Source of the DNA: an uncultured Alphaproteobacteria bacterium | GTDB lineage: Bacteria > Pseudomonadota > Alphaproteobacteria > RF32 > CAG-239 | Direction: 5' to 3' | Assembly: GCA_934271715.1 (NCBI GenBank) | Contig: CAKQRZ010000001.1 | Location: 18,819-82,818, forward strand | DNA: 64,000 nt | Shown: positions 3,523 to 56,084 of the stretch, piece after piece | Position numbering within the stretch: position 1 is the first letter of the stretch | Layout of the letters: each line of letters begins with the position of its first letter | Translations under genes and position numbers: made by a program | Notes under the pieces: model-generated | Databases searched by the model: none | What the model was told of the DNA's origin: nothing | Seen by the model: the letters and a program-made list of their open reading frames with translations, nothing else

Positions 3523-4308
3523 TTATTCCATTTCTACAGTAACTGAGCAGCTTTCGGTTGCGCCTGTGCATTTTTTGCAAACTTCATTGATTTGCTGAGG
3601 GGTAATGCTTGTTAAACACTGTTTATTAGAATCCTTGCAATATTTGTCGCCATACCAATAATTTGCGGAGTCATTATTACCTTTGCCGGAGCGCCATACA
3701 CCGGTAAATCTGATAAAGCTGTGCAATGGCGTAAAAACATTAGCCATGATTTCTTCGCAGAATTTTGAAGAAAATGCCGGAGTTGTGGCAGCTCCGTCTG
3801 CGTCATAGTTTGCACCGCCTATTTCTATGCTGAATACAACTCTGTTCCAGCGGGAAAATAAAGCGCTGTTGTTGCCGTAAGCATCTAAAAAAGATGTGTT
3901 GTGATATGCGGCGGCGTTTTGTTCTATAGGCCAATTATCAGGGACTAAGCCTAAGGCTTGTATGGTATCAGCTATGCCGTATACATCGCCTCCGGAATTT
4001 AGTTTTTTAAAGTCTGAAAGATGTTCTACTAACCCCTGCACAAGCTGGTTATATTCTCCGACTGCCTTGGTTAGCTTAAATTTTTCCATGGCTTTGGAAT
4101 AACCTGCGATTCCGCCGACTGATAATACGCCGATAATCGCCAGAACGCCGAGCATTTCTATCATACTCCGCCCGGATTGAGAATAAGCACTTACTCTGCG
4201 TCCCCGGCACCAGTCATTCTTGGGTTTATCCCAAGAATCTTCTCTCAACCAACACTTATGCAATAATAAGGCTAATTTATTGACTAGGTTAGGGACTCGC
4301 TGCAACAA
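3523..4308 (-). CDS. Type IV pilin-like protein with an A-module 5' region. The pilin frame is open upstream to 4506, and the ATG at 4515-4517 is 2 nt out of frame.
   Basis: Mature N-terminus ...SQSG|RSMIEMLGVLAIIGVLSVGGIAGYSKAMEKFK. The C-terminal Cys-rich tail is CKKCTGATESCSVTVEME. The annotated start at 4308 is a TTG artefact of the ORF track. Confidence 0.75.
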   Translation of the reverse strand: MLQRVPNLVNKLALLLHKCWLREDSWDKPKNDWCRGRRVSAYSQSGRSMIEMLGVLAIIGVLSVGGIAGYSKAMEKFKLTKAVGEYNQLVQGLVEHLSDFKKLNSGGDVYGIADTIQALGLVPDNWPIEQNAAAYHNTSFLDAYGNNSALFSRWNRVVFSIEIGGANYDADGAATTPAFSSKFCEEIMANVFTPLHSFIRFTGVWRSGKGNNDSANYWYGDKYCKDSNKQCLTSITPQQINEVCKKCTGATESCSVTVEME

Positions 4309-4480: not shown

Positions 4481-4494
4481 GAGAGAGAGAGAGA
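4481..4494. repeat. (GA)7/(CT)7 dinucleotide tract between the A-module ATG and the pilin reading frame
   Basis: Direct reading: gca gagagagagagaga cc. The ATG frame reads MKNKLFKGLSLSLQTLNI* and the pilin frame is shifted by +2. Confidence 0.9.
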
Positions 4495-4603: not shown

Positions 4604-5479
4604 TTAAATTCCGCAGCCTTCTTTTTTACGGTCTTCGCGTTTGCGCAAAATTTCCAAATCTCGGTCGGTGGCAATTTTATTCAAAATTGTTTTCACAACG
4701 CAGTCAATTTCTTTGCCCTCGCGGTAGTCGGCGGCCAAAGCAAAGTTTACGCGGTTGTCTTTCAGCAGCTTAACGGCCTTTTCTTTGTGATGGCTGCGGG
4801 GTTTATAAACCGCAATCGCCGTGCCGTTATGTTCTTTTACCATGCGCATTGACGGAATATCGGTCAGCCCGTCGCCGAAATAAATAATGCGGCTGAACGG
4901 GATGCGGCGCTTATCGTCCGGAGTGTAGTCATTTACGGCCTTGTCTTCAAATTTGCCCAAACCTTTATTGATTTTAGAAAGATACTGCACCTTGCCGGAA
5001 TAATTAACCACGCGCGCCGGCCAAACCGGCAAGCCCTCATCGTTATAGGCAAAAGCGCAGCCGTAGACGTCTTTGAAAAACTTGCGGATGCTGCAGCCCT
5101 CAATAATTTCTTCATAGCCGGAAGAAATTATATAATGCTCAATATCCAGCCCCAGAGTTTTACCGTAGGCGTTGATACGCTCAAACCACTCGTTCACGCC
5201 TTTGAAAAAAACAATAAACTCGCCGCAGCAGAACATATTTTCTTTGGTCAGTTTCAGGCCGGTTTCTTCCGCCGTTTTTTTAAAGTAATACATGCTTCCG
5301 GTCACTTGATCCACGCCGTTTGCCTCTGACCAAGCGTTAGCCTCTTTCCAAAAATTTTCCGGTTTCATTCCCAATTCAGGAATCAAAAAATAATCCTGCA
5401 TATAAGTTGTACTTAGCGTTTCATCAAAATCATAAGCAAACGCCACTTTTGTTCTCTTCATCTTTAATCCCTCTTGCAT
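4604..5479 (-). CDS. HAD-superfamily hydrolase
   Basis: Motif I is AYDFDETLS (DxDxT) and motif IV is FGDGLTD. Confidence 0.6.
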
Positions 5480-5545
5480 TTTCTAAAATTATACAGTAAA
5501 ACAAACTTATTAAAAAACATTAAAGAGAAAGAAGGATTTAAAATT

Positions 5546-6904
5546 ATGGTAGCAACTTCTATGGACCAGCTGGTTTCTTTGTGCAAAAGAAGAGGTTTTA
5601 TTTTTCAAAACGCCGATATTTACGGCGGTATGCAAGGCGTTTATGATTACGGTCCGCTCGGTGTGGAACTCAAAAATAACCTAAAAGCCGCTTGGTGGCG
5701 CGCTATGGTTTATGAACGCGACGACGTAGAGGGTTTGGACGCCGCTATTTTAACTAACCGCAAAGTTTTGAAATATTCCGGTCACGAAGATACTTTTTCT
5801 GACCCGATGGTTGATTGCAAAAAGTGCAAAGGCCGTTTTCGTGCAGACCAAATCGGCGGCAAATGTCCTGTTTGCGGTTCAACCGATTTAACCGAGCCGC
5901 GTCCGTTTAACCTGATGTTTAAAACTCAGGTCGGGCCGGTGGAAAGCGATGAAAATATTGCCTATCTGCGTCCGGAAACTGCTCAGGCTATTTTTACGCA
6001 GTTCAAAAATGTGGTAGATTCCACTTCTCGCAAACTGCCTTTCGGTATTGCGCAAATCGGCAAGTCTTTTCGCAATGAGATTACTCCGCGTAACTTTATT
6101 TTCCGCGTGCGTGAGTTTGAGCAAGCCGAATTGGAATATTTTGTTGCGCCGGGTACCGATATGGAATGGCATGAAAAGTGGAAAGAAACCCGTATTCAAT
6201 GGTGGCTGGATCAAGGCTTGGTTAAAGAGCACATGAATATCTATAAAACTCCGGATGACGATTTAGCACACTACGCCAAAGCCTGCTATGATATTGAATA
6301 TCAATTCCCGCATGGTATGGAAGAGCTGGAGGGTATTGCCAACCGCCGCGACTATGATTTGGGGAATCACACCAAAAATCAAGGCGAGTTTCAGCTTGAG
6401 GCTCATTGTCACGCTAATCCGGATTCTACCACAAAATTGTGCATTCAAGATGAAAACGGTAAATGGGTGATTCCATTTGTGATTGAACCTTCTATGGGCG
6501 TTGACCGCGGTGTTCTGGCAGTGTTGACAGAGGCTTATACCGAAGAAGATTTGGGCGATGGCAACAGCCGTGTTGTTTTGAAGCTCAAAAAGCATTTGGC
6601 TCCGATTAAAGTGGCGATTATTCCGCTGAAAAAGAATAACGAGCAAATTATGGCTAAATGCCATGAGCTGAAAAAACAGCTGATGAAACTGGGTATCGGC
6701 CGCGTGGCTTTGGAAAACACCGGCAACATCGGCAAGGCTTACCGCCGCCATGATGAAGTAGGTACGCCGCTGTGCTTGACTGTTGACTTTGAAACTATTG
6801 AACAGCAGCCGGAAAGCGTAACTTTGCGCGACCGCGACACCATGGAGCAAATCCGTGTTAATACCGCTGATTTAGCTGATTATCTGCGCAACTACTTTTT
6901 ATAA
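5546..6904 (+). CDS. glyQS: Glycine--tRNA ligase (class II homodimeric type)
   Basis: N-terminus [51 protein letters not shown]. The start at 5546 has a GGA RBS. The ORF-track start at 5474 is an upstream extension. Confidence 0.85.
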
Positions 6905-8124: not shown

Positions 8125-8201
8125 GCAGGCGTAGCTCATCAGGATAGAGCGACTTCCTCCTAAGAAGTAGGCAGGCGGTTCGAGTCCGCCCGCTTGTACC
8201 A
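8125..8201 (+). tRNA. tRNA-Arg (anticodon CCT)
   Basis: Cloverleaf: D-stem GCTC/GAGC, anticodon stem ACTTC/GAAGT with loop ctCCTaa, T-arm GGCGG-TTCGAGT-CCGCC, and a 3' ACCA. The acceptor stem has two G-U pairs. Confidence 0.75.
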
Positions 8202-8365: not shown

Positions 8366-8541
8366 TGTGTAAAAAAAACGACCGTTTAAAAGGGACAGTT
8401 TTTAGGCTGTTTTTAGTAATGTATCACGGTTTGCTGCAAAATGCAATAACATAATAATTTTGCGTTATTTTTTTCATAATTTTGCAACATTTCAGCAGCT
8501 TGTTTTGAGTGTGTAAAAATAACGGTCGTTTTTTTTACACA
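8366..8541 (+). repeat. B-module element bounded by 21-bp perfect inverted repeats (tgtgtaaaaaaaacgaccgtt ... aacggtcgttttttttacaca), copy 1
   Basis: Inverted repeats at 8366-8386 and 8521-8541. It is followed by taataggaggaataagATG and the conserved 18 codons. Similar copies lie at 26687-26862 and 55125-55300; the inverted repeats are identical in all three, while the internal segment diverges. Confidence 0.8.
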
Positions 8542-8557
8542 TAATAGGAGGAATAAG

Positions 8558-10195
8558 ATGTTGAAGAGTATGAATTTTTTAAGAGGAAAGAGCAGGGAAA
8601 GAGTAAGTGGAGGCGGCACTTCCGTTTGCAGCGTCATTCTTCGCCGGTACTCCCAGCTGGAAGTACCATGGCGGAGAATCCATAACGTCATTGCGCATGC
8701 AATGTCAGTATGCGTTGCCGTTGGCAACAAAGTCATGGATACTCGTCTGCCACAGCCTGCGGGGTGTGGCGACAAGTATGACGTTTCGGGTCGGTGCCGG
8801 GGACGAGGGGTTAGTGCATTTAGCACCTTTACTATTAAAGCAATGTCAATATTAGCATTTCTTTGCTTATTCGCAACCGCGGCGGAGGCGAAGATTTGCT
8901 TTTTGCCGGACGGCAGCTGCGGCACTAGTAAAACAACCGGATTTAAGCAGAATCCAAACGGAAGCGGATGTATGTATAAATCGGAAGCTGAAGCCCGAAA
9001 CGGCTTAGGCGCCTGCGAAACCACATATAAGCAAAACATGTGCTATTATCGGCGCTGCAAGACTGAAGACAATAATATATTTGCAGACGAGGCAAGCTGC
9101 AAAAAGAAAGCCAAAGCAGATAATTTAATCTGCGTAAGCTGCGGCGGCTGCTATAAAGTTACGCCGAAAACATGCCCGAGTGGGTACACGGCAGGCTTAA
9201 CCGCCTGCGCAGAAAAAGCAGGCTATACGGCAAGTTATTCAAGCAACGGCTATGTAGGATATAGCGTCTGCGGCAAGTGCAAATATACCATAAAATCATG
9301 TGAAAGCGGCTATACTGTGGGCTTGGCCAGCTGTCCGGAAAAACAAGGTTATACTTCTAACTATTCCAGAAACGGAGTTTCCGGCGAGCAGGTCTGCGGC
9401 AAGTGCGACTACACGGCAAAGAGCTGTGCCGGAGGTTATACAGCGGGTCTGACAAGCTGCAGCGAGCGCCAAGGCTACACAGCAAGTTTAGTCAGCAATG
9501 GCTATGCCGGGGAGTTGGCTTGCGGAAAATGCAGTTATACGGCAAAAAGCTGTGCCGGAGGTTATACAGCAGGTCTGACAAGCTGCAGCGAACGGCGCGG
9601 CTATAATGCAAGCTATGCCAGCAACGGGTATGCCGGTGAGAAAATTTGCGGAAAATGCGACTATACGGCAAGAACTTGCCCAGATGGATATTCTACAAGA
9701 TATAGCAGCGTCAGCGCCTGCGGAAAAACAGGAAGTAACGGCTGGAATTATTATACTAATGGCTATTCAGGGGAAGCTGTGTGCGGGCAATGTAAAAGTA
9801 AAGCCTGTCCTAATGGGTATACTTGTACGTATTCTAGTAATATCAAGGCTCCTTGTAATAAAAGTATGGGATGTCCAGGCGATAGTGGGTATTATATTTA
9901 TGGTGGTATATTGGAACTAGGCTGGAGTAATGGATGTTTTGAGCGAGGGTATTATGTATATGTTATCTCTAATCGTTGCGGAGACGGGGTATGTGTCAGC
10001 AAATATGCAGCACGCACATGTCCTAGTGGTACAATGTTAAGAGATAGTGTAGATAATATTTATATATATTGCCAAAATAAAAATGCTACATCTTTTTGGG
10101 ATAAATATAATTGGTCGGCAAGGGCTGCAAAAGATGCAAACGGAGATACAGTTTGTTCAGGTTCAGAAATATGTATGGAATGCTATAAAAAATAA
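8558..10195 (+). CDS. Cys-rich tandem-repeat secreted protein with a B-module N-terminal extension. The signal-peptide-like MSILAFLCLFATAAEA starts at 8822.
   Basis: The ATG at 8558 (RBS aggagg) reads the conserved MLKSMNFLRGKSRERVSGGG and runs in frame, with no stop, into a signal peptide and five roughly 42-aa repeats of the form K.C..GYTAGLTSC.E..GYTAS..SNGYAGE..CGKC.YTA. At DNA level the repeats have a 126-bp period (9416-9541 and 9542-9667 are near-identical). Confidence 0.6.
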   Translation: MLKSMNFLRGKSRERVSGGGTSVCSVILRRYSQLEVPWRRIHNVIAHAMSVCVAVGNKVMDTRLPQPAGCGDKYDVSGRCRGRGVSAFSTFTIKAMSILAFLCLFATAAEAKICFLPDGSCGTSKTTGFKQNPNGSGCMYKSEAEARNGLGACETTYKQNMCYYRRCKTEDNNIFADEASCKKKAKADNLICVSCGGCYKVTPKTCPSGYTAGLTACAEKAGYTASYSSNGYVGYSVCGKCKYTIKSCESGYTVGLASCPEKQGYTSNYSRNGVSGEQVCGKCDYTAKSCAGGYTAGLTSCSERQGYTASLVSNGYAGELACGKCSYTAKSCAGGYTAGLTSCSERRGYNASYASNGYAGEKICGKCDYTARTCPDGYSTRYSSVSACGKTGSNGWNYYTNGYSGEAVCGQCKSKACPNGYTCTYSSNIKAPCNKSMGCPGDSGYYIYGGILELGWSNGCFERGYYVYVISNRCGDGVCVSKYAARTCPSGTMLRDSVDNIYIYCQNKNATSFWDKYNWSARAAKDANGDTVCSGSEICMECYKK

Positions 10196-25353: not shown

Positions 25354-25610
25354 ACTCGTCTAATGCAGAAACTCGCCTAATGGCTTTCTGCTGGTAAGAT
25401 TTTTTCTTATGTACTAGTTTGTACACCGCGAAAAAATCTTACTTCGCATTAAGCTCATTATCCGAGTTTCTGCATGCTTGTACCGGTTGTGCTTGTGTAC
25501 CTCGTTGTATACTGCGAAAAAATCTTCGTATTAGCCTCATTATCCGCATTGCTTGACAGAGTGTGCTATTTAAAACCACGCCCCGTAAGGAGGTAAATAA
25601 TATTAGCCAA

Positions 25611-26339
25611 TTAAAATGTCAATACAACGGCACAGGCATCATCTTTAGCACATCCGGAACAATATTTGTTTATATCAGATAAAGATAATTGATTAAAACA
25701 TTTTTTATCGGCACCGTTGCAATAACTATCCCCATAAAAAGCGACAGCTATAGGAAATATCAAAACATATTTTAAGGATGAGTGTAAAGGAGTTGCTATA
25801 TTTTGCACAAACTTTTCACATAAGCTATGAGAAAAATTTGCAGATACAGATTTTCCATCCTCATTTGTTACCCAGCCGCCTAGGTACATATCAAATACTA
25901 AGTCATTGCTGCGAAGGTAAATATTGAAATAATTGCCTAAATTGTCGTGTAAATATGGCCATTCAGGCGGAAGCAGATTTATATTTCTAAAAAATTCATT
26001 AAAATGTGTGCCATTTTTTTGTTTTTTTATGTATTGCAGGTGTTCTGTTATGCCAAAAAGTATATGAGAATAACCATCAATAGCTTTATTGATTTTGTAT
26101 TGCTCCATAGCTTTGGAATATCCGGCAATCCCGCCCACGCTCAACACGCCGATAATGGCCAGCACGCCAAGCATTTCTATCATACTGCGGCCGGATTGAG
26201 AAAAAGTACCATACCTGCGTCCCCAGCACCCATCATTCTTTGGTTTATCCCAAGAATCTTGTGTGAACCAGCTTTTATTTAATAATAAGGCTAATTTGTT
26301 GACTAGGTTAGAGACTCGTTGCCACAAGATTCTAGGCAC
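25611..26339 (-). CDS. Type IV pilin-like protein with an A-module 5' region. The frame is open upstream to about 26576, and the ATG at 26585-26587 is out of frame.
   Basis: ...YGTFSQSG|RSMIEMLGVLAIIGVLSVGGIAGYSKAMEQYK. The C-terminal tail is CSGCAKDDACAVVLTF. Confidence 0.75.
   Translation of the reverse strand: MPRILWQRVSNLVNKLALLLNKSWFTQDSWDKPKNDGCWGRRYGTFSQSGRSMIEMLGVLAIIGVLSVGGIAGYSKAMEQYKINKAIDGYSHILFGITEHLQYIKKQKNGTHFNEFFRNINLLPPEWPYLHDNLGNYFNIYLRSNDLVFDMYLGGWVTNEDGKSVSANFSHSLCEKFVQNIATPLHSSLKYVLIFPIAVAFYGDSYCNGADKKCFNQLSLSDINKYCSGCAKDDACAVVLTF
26164..26291. repeat. 128-bp inverted repeat, left arm. It is 127/128 identical to 27023-27150 in inverse orientation.
   Basis: The reverse complement of 26164-26291 equals 27023-27150 except for one C/T difference. 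The arm covers the pilin leader/N-terminus coding region of both divergent genes. Confidence 0.9.
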
Positions 26340-26550
26340 AAGGCCTAGAATGACAGGTACTAGAGGCGCAGACTTAGTGTTGGTTAATAGATTGCTTCGC
26401 TTTGCTCGCAGTGACGGCAGAGCAAGAGGCGAGCCTGTTAGTTTTGTTCTTAATGCGTTATTACCGAAAGTATCATTTTTTCTGCCAAATCCTGTAAAAA
26501 CGTGCTGAACGGCAGAAAAAGCGCCTTTAATCAGATGTTCAGGATTTGCA

Positions 26551-26686: not shown

Positions 26687-26862
26687 TGTGTAAAAAAAAC
26701 GACCGTTTAAAATGGACAGTTTTTAGGCTGTTTTTAGTAATGTAGCAGAGGTTGTTAAAATTTGCAATAACTTTTTATATTTGCGATGTTTTTTGCGGTT
26801 TTATAAAAATTTACAGCGTCTTGTTTTGAGTGTGTAAAAATAACGGTCGTTTTTTTTACACA
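26687..26862 (+). repeat. B-module IR-bounded element, copy 2
   Basis: Inverted repeats at 26687-26707 and 26842-26862, followed by taataggaggaataagATG at 26879. Confidence 0.8.
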
Positions 26863-26878
26863 TAATAGGAGGAATAAG

Positions 26879-27760
26879 ATGTTTAAGAGTATAGAATTTT
26901 TAAGAGGAAAGAGCAGGGGGAGAGTAGGTGGATGCGGTGGACTCTCGCCTCTAGCACCAGTCATTCTAGGTCTTGTACATAGAATCCTATTGCAACAAAT
27001 CTCTAACCCAGTCAATAAATTTGCCTTATTATTAAATAAAAGCTGGTTCACACAAGATTCTTGGGATAAACCAAAGAATGATGGGTGTTGGGGACGCAGG
27101 TATGGTACTTTTTCTCAATCCGGCCGCAGTATGATAGAAATGCTTGGCGTATTAGCTATAGTAGCTGTTCTCTCAGTCGGCGGGATTGCTGGATATTCCA
27201 AAGCTATGGAAAAGTGGAAAGAAAATAAAGTCATCGGCGAATACAGTTACTTAATACAGGGAATTATAGAGCATTTGAGCGACTTTGAAAAACTGAAAGA
27301 CGAGGAAGTCCGCTATGATTTATTGCCGACCTTAGCGGCAATGAATTTGCTCCCCGGCAACTGGAAAAATACAGACGAATATGAAGGGCATAAAAATGTA
27401 TCAGATACCTTAGGCAATACTTTGTCTGTTTTCAGCCGCAGCGACAGAGTGGTTATGACTATATTGTTTGGCGCTAGTTCGGTTTCCGAAAGCGGAGATA
27501 CCGTTTCGCAAACTTTTTCCGGACAATTATGCAAAGCATTTTGGCAAAATATTTTAGTTCCCTTACATAATCAAATTTATTATGCAGGAGTTTATCGCAG
27601 TAAATATTATGAGCGTGCAAATTATTATTTTAATGATAAATATTGCGGCGGCAAAAATCAATGCTTCAGTGAAATCAAATTGAATGATATAGAAAGAATA
27701 TGCAGCGCCTGCGCTTCCGGGGAAGAATATTGCGTGCTTACTTGGGAGTTTGATTATTAG
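26879..27760 (+). CDS. Type IV pilin-like protein with a B-module N-terminal extension, in frame
   Basis: MFKSIEFLRGKSRGRVGG...(81 aa)...SQSG|RSMIEMLGVLAIVAVLSVGGIAGYSKAMEKWK. The C-terminal tail is CSACASGEEYCVLTWEFDY. Confidence 0.75.
   Translation: MFKSIEFLRGKSRGRVGGCGGLSPLAPVILGLVHRILLQQISNPVNKFALLLNKSWFTQDSWDKPKNDGCWGRRYGTFSQSGRSMIEMLGVLAIVAVLSVGGIAGYSKAMEKWKENKVIGEYSYLIQGIIEHLSDFEKLKDEEVRYDLLPTLAAMNLLPGNWKNTDEYEGHKNVSDTLGNTLSVFSRSDRVVMTILFGASSVSESGDTVSQTFSGQLCKAFWQNILVPLHNQIYYAGVYRSKYYERANYYFNDKYCGGKNQCFSEIKLNDIERICSACASGEEYCVLTWEFDY
27023..27150. repeat. 128-bp inverted repeat, right arm
   Basis: See 26164-26291. Confidence 0.9.
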
Positions 27761-27990
27761 AATGTAAAAAAGCCGGATTCAAATTAATGAAACCGGCACT
27801 TACTCTCGGAAACTCGGATAATGAGGCTAATACGCATTAACTTTTTTGCGCCGTGTACAAACTAGTACACAATAGACTAGCAGAAACTCGTATAGCGGGC
27901 GTAGATGCGACGGAATTTTTAAGCGACGTGTACACAATAGTACACAAGCGCAAAAATCCCTAGCAGATACCAGCTAGACGAGTTTCTTCA

Positions 27991-36468: not shown

Positions 36469-37422
36469 ATGGCAACAGTAAATGATACAGAATTTTCGGA
36501 TATTTATATTATTCCGGATGGCACGGCCTACATTTGGGGGCGTCAGACACCAAGCGGATTGATTCAGGTTCAACCGGATGATTATGATGAATTTTTGCAA
36601 CAAGTTATGAATACATATGACGGTCATAATCCAAGTTATCAAGTAAAATTTAAAGGTTTGAACTACCGTGTTGAAAGAACCGTAACGCTGGAAGGACAGC
36701 AATACTGCGCCCGTAAAATGCCTCACTCTGTGCCGGATATTAACAAACTTGGTATAGAAGAACATTTGCTCAAATACTTAAAATCACTAAGCGGCGCTCC
36801 CGGACTTATTTTGCTTGCCGGTACAACCGGTTCCGGTAAAACCACCACTCTATCAGCTTTGCTGCGTGAATTTTTGATTCGCGACGGCGGCTATGCTTTT
36901 ACGCTGGAAGACCCGGTGGAAATGCCGCTGGACGGCACTTATCATACGGTAAACGGCGAGCTTGGCATTTGCAAACAGATGACGCCTCCGGGAGGTTCTT
37001 GGGAAGCCGGTCTGAAATCAATGCTGCGTTCTAAGCCGCGTTATGTATATCTGGGTGAGATTCGTGACCCTGAAATTGCCTCTGAAGCTTTGCGTGCAGC
37101 TATTTCAGGCCACCTTGTTATGTCCACAATTCACGCCAGCACCGTTACTGATGCTATTCAGTCTATTGTAAAATACGCCGCGGCAACCGGTATTTCCGAA
37201 GAAATGGCCTATGACTTGGTGGGCAACGGTATTTTGGCGGTGCTGCACCAAAGCTTGGTCGGCGTTCCTAAGCGCGCTAAAATTGAATATGTGTTTGCTA
37301 ATCCGGACGGCTCTAAAGGCGACCAAGTGCGCGGTATTATCAAAAGCGGCAAGATGAACTTGTCTACCACGATTGAAACTCAGCGCATTCGTTTGTCACG
37401 CGGCGTGCCGTTGTTTGAATAA
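36469..37422 (+). CDS. PilT/PilU-family secretion ATPase (type IV pilus retraction ATPase-like), short form
   Basis: Walker A GTTGSGKTTT, Asp box TLEDPVE, Walker B YVYLGEIRD and His box HLVMSTIHA. At 317 aa it is shorter than canonical PilT. Confidence 0.65.
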   Translation: MATVNDTEFSDIYIIPDGTAYIWGRQTPSGLIQVQPDDYDEFLQQVMNTYDGHNPSYQVKFKGLNYRVERTVTLEGQQYCARKMPHSVPDINKLGIEEHLLKYLKSLSGAPGLILLAGTTGSGKTTTLSALLREFLIRDGGYAFTLEDPVEMPLDGTYHTVNGELGICKQMTPPGGSWEAGLKSMLRSKPRYVYLGEIRDPEIASEALRAAISGHLVMSTIHASTVTDAIQSIVKYAAATGISEEMAYDLVGNGILAVLHQSLVGVPKRAKIEYVFANPDGSKGDQVRGIIKSGKMNLSTTIETQRIRLSRGVPLFE

Positions 37423-38209: not shown

Positions 38210-38890
38210 CTAAGGCCAGAGATGAATGGAATAGTGCGCCGCACCGCTGCTTTTAGACAATATGTGGCAGCGTTTTTGAATATCGCTCAGTTTGGCGTCG
38301 GCTAAATCTGTATAGTTAAATAGTATAGCATCATTCACCCCTTCTCCAAAATTTTGCCTAAAATTTGATTTCTTAATTTCCAGTGCTACCGGTTGGATTG
38401 CTAAGACTAAATTGCGGCAAAATTCTTCATTATCCTGCGGCAGATAGGCGTCTTTATTAGCCATAAAATATATTTCCATAACATAATATTTACAGTCTTT
38501 CATATTATATTTATGGATTTCTATATGGTTTCCGCTTTTATCATAAATGGCGTTATTTTCAAAAGTTGTTCCCTCCGGCAGATATCCAAGGTCATTAACT
38601 AAATATGTGATATTTTGAAAGTCTCCTAAATTGCTGCCGAGTTTGGGCTTGATTTCTATCATTGCATGAATAAGTTCTGTAATCATATTGCGCTGAATGT
38701 TTGATTTCCACATATTCATAGCTTTAGAATATCCGGCAATCCCTCCAACAGACAGAACAGCTATTATCGCCAATACACCCAGCATTTCTATCATACTTCT
38801 TCCAAAAAAATTTGCGCCTCTGCCGCCAGTCATCCTAGGCCGTGACGCACGGTCTGTGCCTAGGATCTTGTCGCACCAAGGGCGGTGCAA
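38210..38890 (-). CDS. Type IV pilin-like protein with an A-module 5' region. The frame is open upstream to about 39056, and there is an internal in-frame ATG (leader MTGGRGANFFG).
   Basis: ...RPRMTGGRGANFFG|RSMIEMLGVLAIIAVLSVGGIAGYSKAMNMWK. The C-terminus contains Cys. Confidence 0.75.
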   Translation of the reverse strand: MHRPWCDKILGTDRASRPRMTGGRGANFFGRSMIEMLGVLAIIAVLSVGGIAGYSKAMNMWKSNIQRNMITELIHAMIEIKPKLGSNLGDFQNITYLVNDLGYLPEGTTFENNAIYDKSGNHIEIHKYNMKDCKYYVMEIYFMANKDAYLPQDNEEFCRNLVLAIQPVALEIKKSNFRQNFGEGVNDAILFNYTDLADAKLSDIQKRCHILSKSSGAAHYSIHLWP

Positions 38891-39029: not shown

Positions 39030-39045
39030 GAGAGAGAGATAGAGA
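39030..39045. repeat. Interrupted CT/GA tract of an A-module: (GA)5-TA-GAGA, 16 nt
   Basis: gca gagagagagatagaga cc. It is 2 nt longer than the other four copies and is still out of frame. Confidence 0.9.
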
Positions 39046-45095: not shown

Positions 45096-45929
45096 TTAAA
45101 AAGTCATAACAATATGGCACCACGGAGATTTATCTGTACAAGATTTACACATCTCATCAATTTTATTTAAGGTAAGTTCGTTAAGACATTTATTTTCTCC
45201 GCCGCAATAATTGTCTCCATAATATGCGTAGTCCGAAGCCACCGTATGACGATAAAAACTGACATAATATAGGGCGCTATGCAAAGGTTTCATTACATTA
45301 TTGTATAGAGCTCGGCAATATTCAAGATTAGTTTTGTCCGGCAGAATTATACCCTTTTGTTGGTCAATAATACCTATTTCAAAAACCAAATGGCCGTTGC
45401 GAACAAAAGGCCAAACCCAATGATTTTGGGAATCAATAAGCGTAAGTCCCGAATTAGACCATGTTGTTGGAGTTAAATTTGCAGCAATGGCAAATTCAGT
45501 TAAATAGAGCTGAGAACCGTTTGAATTTAATTTTTCATAGTCTGGCAGATGCTCAATCAATCCGGTAATAAAATAAGTGTATTCTTCTATAATTTTATTG
45601 ACCTTAAATTTTTCCATTGCTTTGGAATATCCGGCGATGCCGCCGACTGATAGAACACCAATAATCGCCAGAACGCCCAGCATTTCAATCATTGACCGAC
45701 CGGCTGAAACCGCGTATAGCGGCGCATCTAAAGCAGTTTTACGCTGTCTCAAAAAATTCATGTACCTCCAATGTACACTAGGATTTTTTTCGCAGCTAGA
45801 AACCACTTTATCTACACCACTCTCCGCAGTTTCGAGGAGTTTTGAGGTGTATTGACGCACGACATCCAAACCCTTAAATGTGATGTTGTTTCTTTCGGCG
45901 TCATTGCGAGGAGTGTAACGACGAAGCAA
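45096..45929 (-). CDS. Type IV pilin-like protein with an A-module 5' region. The frame is open upstream to 46082, and the ATG at 46091-46093 is out of frame.
   Basis: ...YAVSAG|RSMIEMLGVLAIIGVLSVGGIAGYSKAMEKFK. An internal in-frame M would give a 21-aa leader. The C-terminal tail is CKSCTDKSPWCHIVMTF. Confidence 0.75.
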   Translation of the reverse strand: MLRRYTPRNDAERNNITFKGLDVVRQYTSKLLETAESGVDKVVSSCEKNPSVHWRYMNFLRQRKTALDAPLYAVSAGRSMIEMLGVLAIIGVLSVGGIAGYSKAMEKFKVNKIIEEYTYFITGLIEHLPDYEKLNSNGSQLYLTEFAIAANLTPTTWSNSGLTLIDSQNHWVWPFVRNGHLVFEIGIIDQQKGIILPDKTNLEYCRALYNNVMKPLHSALYYVSFYRHTVASDYAYYGDNYCGGENKCLNELTLNKIDEMCKSCTDKSPWCHIVMTF

Positions 45930-54177: not shown

Positions 54178-54804
54178 TCATACATTATTATCAAAAAGGA
54201 TTTGAATTAAACAGTAATCGTCTTTGCAGATTTTACAAGCTTCGCTGACTTCCGGCAAATTATAATCTTCTCTTACGCATTCAGCAACAGCATAATCTGC
54301 CGGTCTGGCATTTCCGCAGATTCTATAATCCCAACTGCTGCATGTTCCGCTGCACAATACTATAGTCCAAATAATATCAGTATAAACCGGCAATAAATGG
54401 AATAATTCGCGGCAGTTATATTCGGCTATACTGTTTGGCAATATTTCAAATTGTAAATTTAAACGAGTGTAAATATCATAAGGTTTCATAGTAACAGATA
54501 CTCTGTTTCTAAACAAATCTCTGTTATCATCATCTAACAAGCCTTGAGGCACAATGCCGATTTCTTTTAAGGTGGGCAGAATGTCTTCACTGCGTTTTCC
54601 ATATTGTTTTTCTAATTTATATGTATCTTTGATGTTAAAAATCAGCTCTTCTACTTGCTGAATCCATTTATCTTGCTTCCACTTCTCCATAACCTTGGAA
54701 TAACCGGCGATTCCACCTACTGATAATATACCAACAATCGCCAGAACTCCGAGCATTTCAATCATGCTTCTCCCTAAGAAATTTGCGCTTCTAGCACTCG
54801 TCAT
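54178..54804 (-). CDS. Type IV pilin-like protein with an A-module 5' region. The frame is open upstream to about 55014, and an in-frame ATG gives the short leader MTSARSANFLG.
   Basis: MTSARSANFLG|RSMIEMLGVLAIVGILSVGGIAGYSKVMEKWK. The C-terminal tail is CKICKDDYCLIQILFDNNV. Confidence 0.75.
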   Translation of the reverse strand: MTSARSANFLGRSMIEMLGVLAIVGILSVGGIAGYSKVMEKWKQDKWIQQVEELIFNIKDTYKLEKQYGKRSEDILPTLKEIGIVPQGLLDDDNRDLFRNRVSVTMKPYDIYTRLNLQFEILPNSIAEYNCRELFHLLPVYTDIIWTIVLCSGTCSSWDYRICGNARPADYAVAECVREDYNLPEVSEACKICKDDYCLIQILFDNNV

Positions 54805-54988
54805 ACTAGGCCCTGTGCCTAGTATCTTGTGGCACCAAGGGCGGTGTAATCCATCGCCCCGTGAGGGAGAGGTTATTATTTTTGTTCTTAATGCGTTATT
54901 TCCGAAAGTATCATTTTTTCTGCCAAACCCTGCAAAAACGTGCTGAACAGCAGAAAAAGTGCCTTTAATCAGATGTTCAGGATTTGCA

Positions 54989-55002
54989 GAGAGAGAGAGA
55001 GA
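54989..55002. repeat. (GA)7/(CT)7 tract of an A-module
   Basis: Direct reading. Confidence 0.9.
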
Positions 55003-55062
55003 CCTTTGCTTAGCTTATTTTTCATCTTTCTTTCCTCTTATTTTAAGTTAATTTACATCTTT

Positions 55063-55092
55063 ATTCTACACCAGCCATACTCCATAAGTCAA
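55063..55092 (-). promoter_or_regulatory. Sigma70-like promoter of an A-module (TTGACT-N18-TAGAAT)
   Basis: Minus strand: TTGACTtatggagtatggctggtgTAGAAT. Confidence 0.55.
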
Positions 55093-55124
55093 CCGTAAAA
55101 TCAAAGCGTTGGAAGAGGCGGAAG

Positions 55125-55300
55125 TGTGTAAAAAAAACGACCGTTTAAAAGGGACAGTTTTTAGGCTGTTTTTAGTAATGTAACAGAGGTTGCTAAAATT
55201 TGCAATAACTTTTTATATTTGCGATGTTTTTTGCAGATTTGTGAGACTTTTCAGCGTCTTGTTTATAGTGTGTAAAAATAACGGTCGTTTTTTTTACACA
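55125..55300 (+). repeat. B-module IR-bounded element, copy 3
   Basis: Inverted repeats at 55125-55145 and 55280-55300. An internal putative promoter TTGCTA-N18-TATATT lies at 55209-55238. Confidence 0.8.
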
Positions 55301-55316
55301 TAATAGGAGGAATAAG

Positions 55317-56084
55317 ATGTTGAAGAGTATAGAATTTTTAAGAGGAAAGAGCAGGGGAAGAGTAGGTGGATTGCTTCGCTGCACTCGCAATGACGGTGCA
55401 GGTAACGGCGAGGGATTGCACCGCCCTGGGTGCGACAAGATCCTAGGCACAGACTGTGCGTCACGGCCTAGGATGACTGGTGGCAGAGGCGCAAATTACT
55501 TTGGCCGCAGTATGATAGAAATGCTGGGAGTTCTCGCAATTATCGGAGTGCTGAGTGTCGGCGGAATTGCCGGATATTCTAAAGCTATGATGATGTGGAA
55601 AGTTGATAAATGGAGTGCCGGGTTAATTCAAATGATGCAGGAAGCGCAAACTCTGTATTTGAATCAAAAATCATTCGGCGATACTGTGAAAATTATCACT
55701 CCTCAGCTGGTAGATACCGGAGTTATTCCGCAGGGAATGCTGGATGAAAATTACCGCGATATGTTCGGCAATCGGCTTACTGTTTTAACTCGTTATTGGG
55801 ATGTGTTTGGACTTCGCCTGAATGTTTATCATGAAATGCCTGCCGGTAAAGACGCGGTGGAATGCTGTAAAAAGCTATATGAGATGGGACAGCAGTTTCC
55901 CAGCAACTGGGTAGTAGTAACTGAAAATTTCGGCTATTCAGTCTGCGGCAGAGCGGCGCCGGATAGTTATGTGCAGGCGATGGGCTGTCAGCCTTATAGT
56001 TTAGCTAAGGTCGCAGAACTGTGCAAAAATTGCGAAACCAATAACTGCAATATAATATTTTTATTGGATAATACTAAATATTAA
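55317..56084 (+). CDS. Type IV pilin-like protein with a B-module N-terminal extension
   Basis: MLKSIEFLRGKSRGRVGG...RPRMTGGRGANYFG|RSMIEMLGVLAIIGVLSVGGIAGYSKAMMMWK. The C-terminal tail is CKNCETNNCNIIFLLDNTKY. Confidence 0.75.
   Translation: MLKSIEFLRGKSRGRVGGLLRCTRNDGAGNGEGLHRPGCDKILGTDCASRPRMTGGRGANYFGRSMIEMLGVLAIIGVLSVGGIAGYSKAMMMWKVDKWSAGLIQMMQEAQTLYLNQKSFGDTVKIITPQLVDTGVIPQGMLDENYRDMFGNRLTVLTRYWDVFGLRLNVYHEMPAGKDAVECCKKLYEMGQQFPSNWVVVTENFGYSVCGRAAPDSYVQAMGCQPYSLAKVAELCKNCETNNCNIIFLLDNTKY

Follow-up and report, generated by a model that had tools for sequence, protein, structure and literature searches.

Most of what is known about phase-variable surface structures in the gut comes from Bacteroidales and pathogens. 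In Bacteroides fragilis, many invertible promoters of ~150-200 bp, spread genome-wide and sharing one repeat consensus, control capsule operons under the global serine invertase Mpi. The invertases Hin (acting on hix sites at Salmonella fljBA), Gin (on gix), Pin and Cin, each of ~200 residues, recombine imperfect palindromic sites with a 2-bp asymmetric core, and in the case of Hin the promoter lies inside the segment. The fimS element of E. coli is a single locus at which the tyrosine recombinases FimB and FimE act on 9-bp repeats in the control of a chaperone-usher pilus, while Piv of Moraxella bovis and M. lacunata and the PilV shufflon of R64 and Salmonella Typhi (Rci, a tyrosine recombinase) invert coding segments and exchange pilin C-termini. 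The opa genes of Neisseria carry (CTCTT)n in the signal-peptide coding region, and the repeat number sets the frame. The present analysis concerns 64,000 nucleotides (nt) of contig CAKQRZ010000001.1 (assembly GCA_934271715.1, positions 18,819-82,818, forward strand), hereafter the window, and within it a divergent pair of pilin genes at 54178-56084, the 55-kb pair, made up of A55 and B55 (the letters name the upstream cassettes, not protein classes). We consider it probable that two different phase-variation cassettes stand back to back at this locus, between paralogous type IVb-like prepilin genes.

Both genes lie where a first-pass annotation of the window had placed them, A55 as an open reading frame (ORF) of 208 residues read from an internal ATG at 54178-54804 on the minus strand, and B55 as an ORF of 255 residues read from its cassette ATG at 55317-56084 on the plus strand. 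The features follow one another in the order given there, that is pilin A, a CT tract, a minus-strand ATG, a promoter-like site, an inverted repeat, an ATG and pilin B, and the idea that the 512 bp between the genes form a switch region holds up, with the anatomy of a putative invertible promoter on one side and a frame-setting CT tract on the other. A second divergent pair near 26 kb (A26 and B26) has the same architecture, and alignment of the two pairs gives a core of ~500 bp with 93% identity over 497 nt. The window as a whole contains 8 pilin paralogs, 3 invertible segments (invertons) and 5 CT cassettes, and the inverted repeat was found at more than 170 loci in gut Alphaproteobacteria metagenome-assembled genomes (MAGs) and metagenomes, the number per genome being 20 or more. 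Numbers such as L001 designate the loci and contigs fetched from other assemblies.

The B cassette is a 176-bp segment with perfect 21-bp inverted repeats, the left arm at 55125-55145 on the plus strand (TGTGTAAAAAAAACGACCGTT) and the right arm at 55280-55300 on the minus strand, around an interior of 134 nt (55146-55279) that holds promoter-like sites on both strands. This perfect repeat occurs three times in the window, where the 21-mer has 9 matches at three mismatches or fewer against 0.02 expected. The arms are parts of ~32-bp dyad-symmetric sites, in which 15-nt A-rich half-sites surround a central AC on the left and GT on the right. The left arm takes in the outer half-site, the central AC and the first part of an imperfect inner half-site, and this site with its poor inner half is called here the Q end; the right arm together with 55269-55279 makes a near-perfect 32-bp palindrome around the central GT, the P end. 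Conservation runs past the right arm for ~50 nt, through the ribosome-binding site (RBS, AGGAGG), the ATG and 18 codons (MLKSIEFLRGKSRGRVGG), and on the other side for ~27 nt. The RBS and ATG (55305-55319) are located 5-16 nt outside the arm, the ATG at 55317 lying 16 nt from it, and they are conserved at 125 switch flanks. Among the pilin genes found behind such a switch, 88 of 89 continue the reading frame of the cassette ATG without a stop, with leaders of 27-204 residues and a mode of 31-33 that is close to type IVb leader lengths; other genes behind switches encode cysteine-rich secreted proteins, an acyltransferase and a membrane protein. From this anatomy, which is that of a predicted invertible promoter, we consider it probable that a recombinase flips the 176-bp segment together with its promoter and thereby switches transcription of B, and that pilin B is translated from the ATG outside the segment through a leader of 63 residues (55317-55505), the mature part beginning at 55506.

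Sister switches with identical repeats do invert. At a locus that we call locus X, where the arms are identical to those of the 55-kb pair, the interior is of the same type and the switch abuts the start of an acyltransferase gene, four assemblies show one orientation (L083, L001, L115, L160) and a fifth the opposite one (L165); when the two forms are compared, the right flanks agree at 99%, and the interiors match (98.5%) only if one of them is reverse-complemented. Paralogous loci of related lineages also stand in opposite orientations (L031 versus L056 and L062; L077 and L030 versus L017). The first-pass annotation had staked its proposal on the existence of further dyads and of orientation heterogeneity: further dyads exist, and the heterogeneity is found within the switch family. 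At the A55 locus itself, an orthologous contig in which gene A is 99% identical (L108) has the A-side flank and arm joined to the P end, the junction of the inverted state. This contig was at one time taken as proof of inversion here and is now held to be suggestive, because its 101-nt inner fragment is 100% identical to the switches of another species and the contig may be chimeric. The junctions that inversion would create at this locus read GGCGGAAG, arm, ATTTTTACACAC on one side and CTGTCCCTTTTA, arm, TAATAGGAGG on the other, and we infer that the segment inverts at this locus too. The contigs L108, L144 and L178 all break at the switch. Rearranged flanks were also seen, namely distal/distal in L138 (1315-1490), gene/gene of the RBS type in L004 (1470-1645), and the junction of L044 and L025; double distal or double RBS flanks are what would be expected if arms of different switches also recombine.

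With its ~176 bp, its 21-bp terminal inverted repeats and its high copy number, the segment could also be viewed as a miniature inverted-repeat transposable element (MITE) of the Correia-like kind, which carries an outward promoter, does not invert and has been inserted upstream of many genes. Nevertheless, the conservation passes beyond the repeats on both sides (~50 nt with RBS, ATG and 18 codons; ~27 nt), the orientation relative to the gene is almost invariant, both orientations occur within the same flanks at locus X, and the hybrid sites described below join at the central core, so that we regard a mobile element of this type as very improbable and retain the invertible promoter. In addition to the switch of the 26-kb pair (arms at 26687 and 26842), the window has a third switch at 8366-8541 (arms at 8366 and 8521), which adjoins a tRNA-Arg gene (8125-8201) and drives a non-pilin gene for a cysteine-rich repeat protein of 545 residues (8558-10195). 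The signal peptide of this protein (MSILAFLCLFATAAEA, followed by KICFLPD) lies ~95 residues inside the ORF that opens at the cassette ATG, and its relatives begin directly at the cassette ATG.

Which way the promoter of the switch points in the window is a matter on which our reading has changed. A promoter facing B (TTGCTA-18-TATATT, 55190-55219, plus strand, 9/12 matches) was favored at first and lost ground when the comparison across lineages showed a better-conserved promoter on the opposite strand; this one (TTGCAA-17(TGT)-TACATT, 55177-55205, minus strand) exits the Q end and points to A, away from B. In 86 unique interiors from all lineages, the minus-strand architecture TTGCnn-17-(TGn)-TAnnnT is the better conserved, with the 17-nt spacer in 83, the TG in 78 and TAnnnT in all 86, across 45 different spacers and 16 different -10 hexamers. 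The distance from the end of its -10 to the Q end is 29-32 nt, the promoter is preceded by an A/T-rich stretch, and the region upstream of this promoter is also the least conserved part of the interior. As for the B-facing candidate, its -10 is conserved and its -35 is weak across lineages. B55 is probably OFF in the window because the better-conserved promoter exits the A-facing end, and we consider it somewhat more likely that the window shows the B-OFF orientation, with the candidate switch promoter running into the A cassette, where it would add to the promoter that A already has. If the minus-strand promoter is functional, the near-uniform orientation of the pilin switches means a mostly silent repertoire, and the non-pilin targets would be mostly ON (four of five assemblies at locus X; L004).

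A putative enzyme is encoded outside the window. It is a serine recombinase of 203 residues (P0136-type) with PF00239 and a helix-turn-helix domain (PF02796), conserved at 66-95% identity among the homologs listed, some of which are named Alphaproteobacteria MAG proteins, and one source labels it "Pin-like DNA invertase". Directly upstream of its gene lies an inverton of its own, whose sites (CTCTCCAyAAAyG-AC/GT-CrTTT) have the same core as the pilin switches; this inverton carries a promoter (TTGACT-17-TATGCT), shares the geometry of the minus-strand promoter described above and is found in both states (L121 and L184 versus L185 and L190). One contig, L121, links the two kinds of element, for it has a hybrid site in which an A55-type flank and the outer half-site of a pilin switch (TGTGTAAAAAAAACG-AC-) run on into the interior of the recombinase inverton. 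The parental sequences of this hybrid have in common only the 12-nt core AAACGACCGTTT, and the hybrid junction falls within it, as expected for a crossover at the core; an assembly artefact is discounted because a 12-nt core is too short at k = 55, the value assumed for SPAdes-style contigs. A serine invertase of the Pin/Hin type would on these grounds be the best candidate for flipping the pilin switches. Like Hin, Gin, Pin and Cin, the candidate has ~200 residues with PF00239 and a helix-turn-helix, and the pilin switches combine A-rich half-sites around a 2-bp asymmetric core with a promoter inside the segment; we presume a resemblance of the sites to hix and gix. Unlike those systems, there are dozens of target segments here, of 176 bp each, and the recombinase gene stands outside the pilin switches.

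The enzyme may instead be a tyrosine recombinase. One such protein, of 355 residues and encoded beside locus X, was considered and rejected as an island integrase, because its homologs lie beside tRNA genes, within a conserved ~5-kb island that is free of switch repeats. That island (L001 765-4849; L173, L174, L176) encodes tyrosine recombinases of 355 and ~200 residues and four small ORFs, and in one species it adjoins the acyltransferase switch of locus X. The serine recombinases of L073 were set aside as well: they are found 2-6 kb away from a normal switch, within a low-GC island, and the link is not convincing.

The device on the A side is of another kind. The A cassette consists of a sigma-70-like promoter TTGACT-18-TAGAAT, an RBS, an ATG, a (CT)n tract and ~130 nt downstream, and it occurs five times in the window, only two of these copies adjoining a switch. 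At the 55-kb pair the promoter (55063-55092, minus strand) is fixed and lies outside the invertible segment; it is the best promoter match of the region (10/12) and is conserved in switch-less A cassettes too. It is followed on the same strand by a purine-rich RBS (AGAGGAAAGAAAG) and the ATG at 55025-55023 (together 55023-55040, conserved in the five window copies), and by the (CT)7 tract (54988-55001), which occupies codons 9-13 of the cassette ORF. With (CT)7 the ATG at 55025 reads an 18-residue peptide, MKNKLSKGLSLSLQILNI, and stops, which leaves A55 translationally OFF; 6 or 9 units, and only these numbers, would join the A-cassette ATG to the pilin, the joined leader beginning MKNK...LSLSANPEHLIKG. 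A26 is out of frame and translationally OFF as well, and the removal of one CT in silico yields a full-length prepilin for both genes. In the pilin frame of A55 a stop lies just 5' of the tract, and from the tract the frame is open across ~76 codons into the pilin, over a long leader-coding stretch (54805-54987, minus strand) that consists partly of repeated hairpin modules; in A26 it is open for ~124 codons from the tract, with no start codon between tract and pilin.

Comparison among loci extends these observations. All 26 testable A cassettes keep the pilin frame open from the tract to the pilin motif, over 58-211 codons. Tract lengths of 5, 6, 7 and 8 occur, and in 32 cassettes the length predicts the frame: (CT)7 gives +2 (18/18), (CT)8 gives +1 (5/6) and (CT)6 gives frame 0 (2/2), the natural (CT)6 alleles L118 and L143 encoding full-length prepilins. 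At the A55 locus itself a Hadza strain (L179) has (CT)5 versus (CT)7 in four other assemblies, in flanks that are 98.6% identical. This same-locus difference was found through an exact-protein look-up, and BLAST among 24 A cassettes for orthologous pairs that differ in CT number returned partial matches only; one contig terminates within the CT tract. The tract is a frame-setting repeat within the 5' coding region, its number is polymorphic across loci and at the A55 locus, and the A cassette has the anatomy and the population signature expected of a slipped-strand contingency locus. Slipped-strand mispairing would change the number of CT units and so toggle the translation of A55. As in Neisseria opa, a pyrimidine repeat follows directly on the start codon, within the leader, in the copies of a surface multigene family, and most copies are out of frame; the differences are the CT dinucleotide unit, the nature of the products, which are pilins with a class III signal, and the 58-211 codons that separate the repeat from the mature protein. 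Three further CT cassettes lie on the minus strand with no adjacent switch, at 4493 (gene 3523-4308), 39038 (gene 38210-38890) and 46069 (gene 45096-45929), and the tract at 39038 is interrupted (CTCTAT(CT)5).

One might argue that the tract is no phase-variation device at all, and that the 18-residue ORF (MKNK..LQILNI, then a stop) is a regulatory upstream ORF behind which the pilins start internally, for example at MTSARSANFLG. (CT)7 is by far the commonest length, the identical peptide is read from all copies, and the internal ATG of A55 gives a canonical short prepilin leader, all of which fits such an arrangement. Yet A26 and several others lack any start codon between tract and pilin, although the frame is open for 58-211 codons in 26 of 26 cassettes, and the stop just 5' of the tract closes the pilin frame; moreover, lengths of 5-8 occur, including 5 versus 7 at the A55 locus, and the (CT)6 alleles are exactly in frame. 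We therefore consider an upstream ORF improbable and continue to read the tract as a frame switch.

That the products are pilins is indicated by the N-terminal motif of the pilin-like ORFs, a leader-terminal G followed by RSMIEMLGVLA with Glu at +5. The longer form, G followed by RSMIEMLGVLAI(V/I)G.LSVGGIAGY, occurs in each of the 8 paralogs of the window, and its columns are invariant or nearly so in 46 homologs. TIGR02532, the NCBIfam prepilin domain, matches the motif in 9 of 9 scanned pilin-like ORFs at 10.3-16.0 bits, below the cutoff of 16.3, and a Pfam scan of the pilin genes gave no accepted match; a few distant homologs in this very large, unannotated family carry PF08805 (PilS_N). 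With a leader that ends in Gly, a hydrophobic N-terminal helix and Glu +5, the predicted proteins have the features of a class III signal, and many orthologs have canonical prepilin leaders of 6-8 residues. In both genes of the 55-kb pair internal in-frame ATGs give short leaders, as the first-pass annotation had noted, MTSARSANFLG in A55 (followed by RSMIEML, the mature part starting at 54771) and MTGGRGANYFG in B55. The AlphaFold model of B55 (predicted local distance difference test score, pLDDT, 86.7) shows an N-terminal helix of 50 residues and an alpha/beta domain, a predicted pilin fold of the type IVb kind, and the long leaders would be cleaved at the prepilin site. The only recognised pilus-machinery gene within the window encodes a T2SSE-family (PilT/PilB-like) ATPase of 317 residues (36469-37422), ~0.8 kb from the pilin gene 38210-38890.

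A number of observations speak against two functional switches between pilin genes and have to be set beside the evidence above. With respect to inversion, orientation heterogeneity at this locus is limited to L108, all other assemblies of the locus (the window, L171, L172, L179-L181) share one orientation, ~103 of 104 gene-side junctions in all data have the same orientation, and a metagenome scan for the opposite junction, with the Q end next to the RBS, gave 0 matches. Candidate promoters occur on both strands of the interior. The window encodes no recombinase, and in L121, the one contig where the candidate adjoins a pilin-switch half-site, the candidate gene (5245-5850, ERZ1034855 NODE-1508) has an in-frame TAG at codon 49; this strain may be locked, or the TAG may be a sequencing error. 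On the A side, the OFF length (CT)7 is the commonest, in 20 of 32 cassettes, and ON alleles are rare, so that switching may be slow. As to the proteins, the pilin hidden Markov models all score below threshold (Pfam N_methyl reaches E = 0.0099 for one paralog only), a Foldseek search gave no significant match, and leaders of 63 to more than 130 residues are, to our knowledge, far longer than those of any known prepilin and of unprecedented length.

The question arises as to whether the A+B dyad is a functional unit, as the recurrence of the arrangement had been taken to argue. The recurrence is genuine, for the back-to-back arrangement is found in several genomes, and of the 32 A cassettes in the fetched loci 20 lie next to a switch, a sample biased by the use of the repeat to fetch the loci. 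An obligate unit is not borne out: the A cassette has its own promoter and lacks a switch in 3 of the 5 window copies, ~105 of 125 switches have no A cassette, the third switch of the window drives a non-pilin gene, and one and the same A55 protein has three different B partners across strains. These partners are B55, an ortholog of the window gene 45096 (which in the window lies behind a CT cassette) and a third pilin; in the strains with a different B gene, homology to the window ends at ~55370, where the conserved B cassette stops. Another strain has at its 38-kb locus a gene orthologous to B55 (89%), which possesses a canonical leader (MKLNQSG) and lacks a cassette. Because A55 changes partners and the B55 ortholog lies elsewhere without a cassette, pilin genes are reassorted among expression cassettes. 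Nor do the proteins fall into an A type and a B type, as the module names of the earlier annotation implied: in the globular domain A55 and A26 share 20% identity and B55 and B26 24%, versus 33% between A55 and B55, and the partners within a pair are near-closest paralogs of each other (33-36%).

Given the geometry, the switch promoter may be able to serve A or B according to its state, and this leads to a stricter version in which one invertible promoter drives A or B alternately, the pilins are mutually exclusive and the dyad is the unit. It is consistent with the best-conserved inner promoter, which exits toward A now and would exit toward B after inversion, with the proportion of fetched A cassettes that adjoin a switch and with the opposite junction at the A55 flank in L108. 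However, apart from the promoter of the A cassette, its solitary copies and the many switches without it, the CT tract also gates A and leaves both window A genes out of frame, a terminator-like hairpin stands just upstream of the A cassette at gene 38210, and the partner of A55 varies between strains; we consider an obligate toggle unlikely, and prefer two cassettes that are juxtaposed.

The inverted homology of the two leader regions was correctly recognised at the outset. It consists of 46 nt at 89% (54813-54858 and 55407-55452) and 153 nt at 73% (54663-54815 and 55462-55614), and the leader 34-mer has 3 occurrences in the window against 0 expected. We interpret it as shared paralogy, made up of the pilin N-terminus and a repeated hairpin module, and not as a recombination site. 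The module in the B leader (55407-55452, plus strand, encoding ...GLHRPGCDKILGT...) is the inverted homolog of 54813-54858 and recurs at 38854-38887, preceding the gene 38210-38890. A further proposal would have the whole intergenic region flip by homologous recombination between these inverted leader and N-terminal homologies (153-285 nt) and thereby swap pilins between cassettes. The homology that it needs is there, in the form of a 285-nt stretch (86%) at the 26-kb pair and of the 46-nt and 153-nt stretches just given, but every assembly of this locus keeps A55 behind the CT cassette and B55 behind the switch, and the homology between strains ends at ~55370 with the B cassette and not in the leader homology, which makes such a flip scarcely credible beside inversion of the short segment.

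Repeated hairpin modules resembling repetitive extragenic palindromic (REP) elements stay in frame within the leaders at 38854-38887, 54813-54846 and 55419-55452 and also occur at 26215-26371 and 27043-27099, their translations including HRPWCDKILGT, SWDKPKNDG and LLRCTRNDG. In another strain (L191 1050-1200) the same modules are untranslated, intergenic and in reverse orientation. An Rfam scan of the window found two tRNAs only, and the leader hairpins match no known RNA family. An 82-nt inverted repeat (78%; 25407-25488 and 27791-27872) flanks the 26-kb pair on both sides; it contains a perfect 20-mer and is made of tandem direct repeats of 82-86 nt (25401-25553, 27839-27947), which suggests an origin of this pair by inverted duplication or its location within a larger unit that is invertible or mobile.

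With regard to the source of these sequences, a contig from a Hadza gut metagenome is 99.985% identical to the window across 6.8 kb. The carriers of the 21-mer are restricted to MAGs titled uncultured Alphaproteobacteria, to some evidently misnamed bins and to human-gut metagenome contigs. Bins labelled Bacteroidaceae, [Ruminococcus] gnavus and Eubacteriales hold these switches and pilins (L001, L005, L006, L008, L017 and others) and are likely mislabelled or contaminated. Many contigs stop exactly at a switch arm or within a CT tract (L144, L178, L172, L108, L014, L111, L125, L146 and others), and the arms and tracts are a systematic source of assembly breaks in this lineage.

Both mechanisms are already known in kind. 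Our literature searches returned general catalogues of invertible promoters and invertons (PMC10403206, PMC11602134) and a review of phase variation in general (PMC11868660), and no description of this system. What is new is the host lineage, the pilins as main target, the scale, the back-to-back combination, the start codon within the cassette and the very long translated leaders. The closest parallel is with the Mpi system of Bacteroides fragilis, where, as here, scattered promoter segments with one repeat consensus and presumably one remote serine recombinase control surface structures of a gut commensal. The present system differs in that its host is alphaproteobacterial, that its targets are mainly type IVb-like pilins, plus cysteine-rich secreted proteins and an acyltransferase, that the repeated cassette includes the RBS, the ATG and the first 18 codons, and that the recombinase, which we infer to act on these sites, has an inverton of its own. 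With fimS it shares a short invertible promoter element with ON/OFF control of a fimbrial subunit gene, unlike the single locus, the tyrosine recombinases, the 9-bp repeats and the chaperone-usher pilus of fimS. As in the Piv and PilV systems, site-specific inversion would vary type IV pilus proteins, and the PilV pilus is itself of type IVb; here it is the promoter segment that inverts, and the coding sequences are fixed.

It is tempting to go further and to propose, tentatively and as a possibility that we would put below even chances, a genome-wide, self-regulated serine-invertase regulon of 20-30 or more invertons per genome, in which a large, mostly silent library of type IVb-like pilins, with a few other surface genes, would be individually switchable, the CT tracts would add a second, independent layer on further paralogs, recombination between loci (L121, L138, L004) would occur and the long REP-like leaders would be cleaved. 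Such a regulon would be testable, as it comes down to one 21-bp site and one candidate invertase, and the switch sequences can be used directly for ON/OFF measurement in existing metagenomes. The switches also account for the assembly breaks at these sites in these genomes, and the leaders raise a biochemical question, namely the removal of 60-200 residues by prepilin peptidase. Because both devices recur across genomes, the inverton more than 20 times in one of them, the surface pili look individually switchable. Two classical mechanisms are combined at single loci, and in non-industrialised human guts an abundant, uncultured lineage of Alphaproteobacteria appears to have given over much of its genome to type IVb-like pilins that can be switched.

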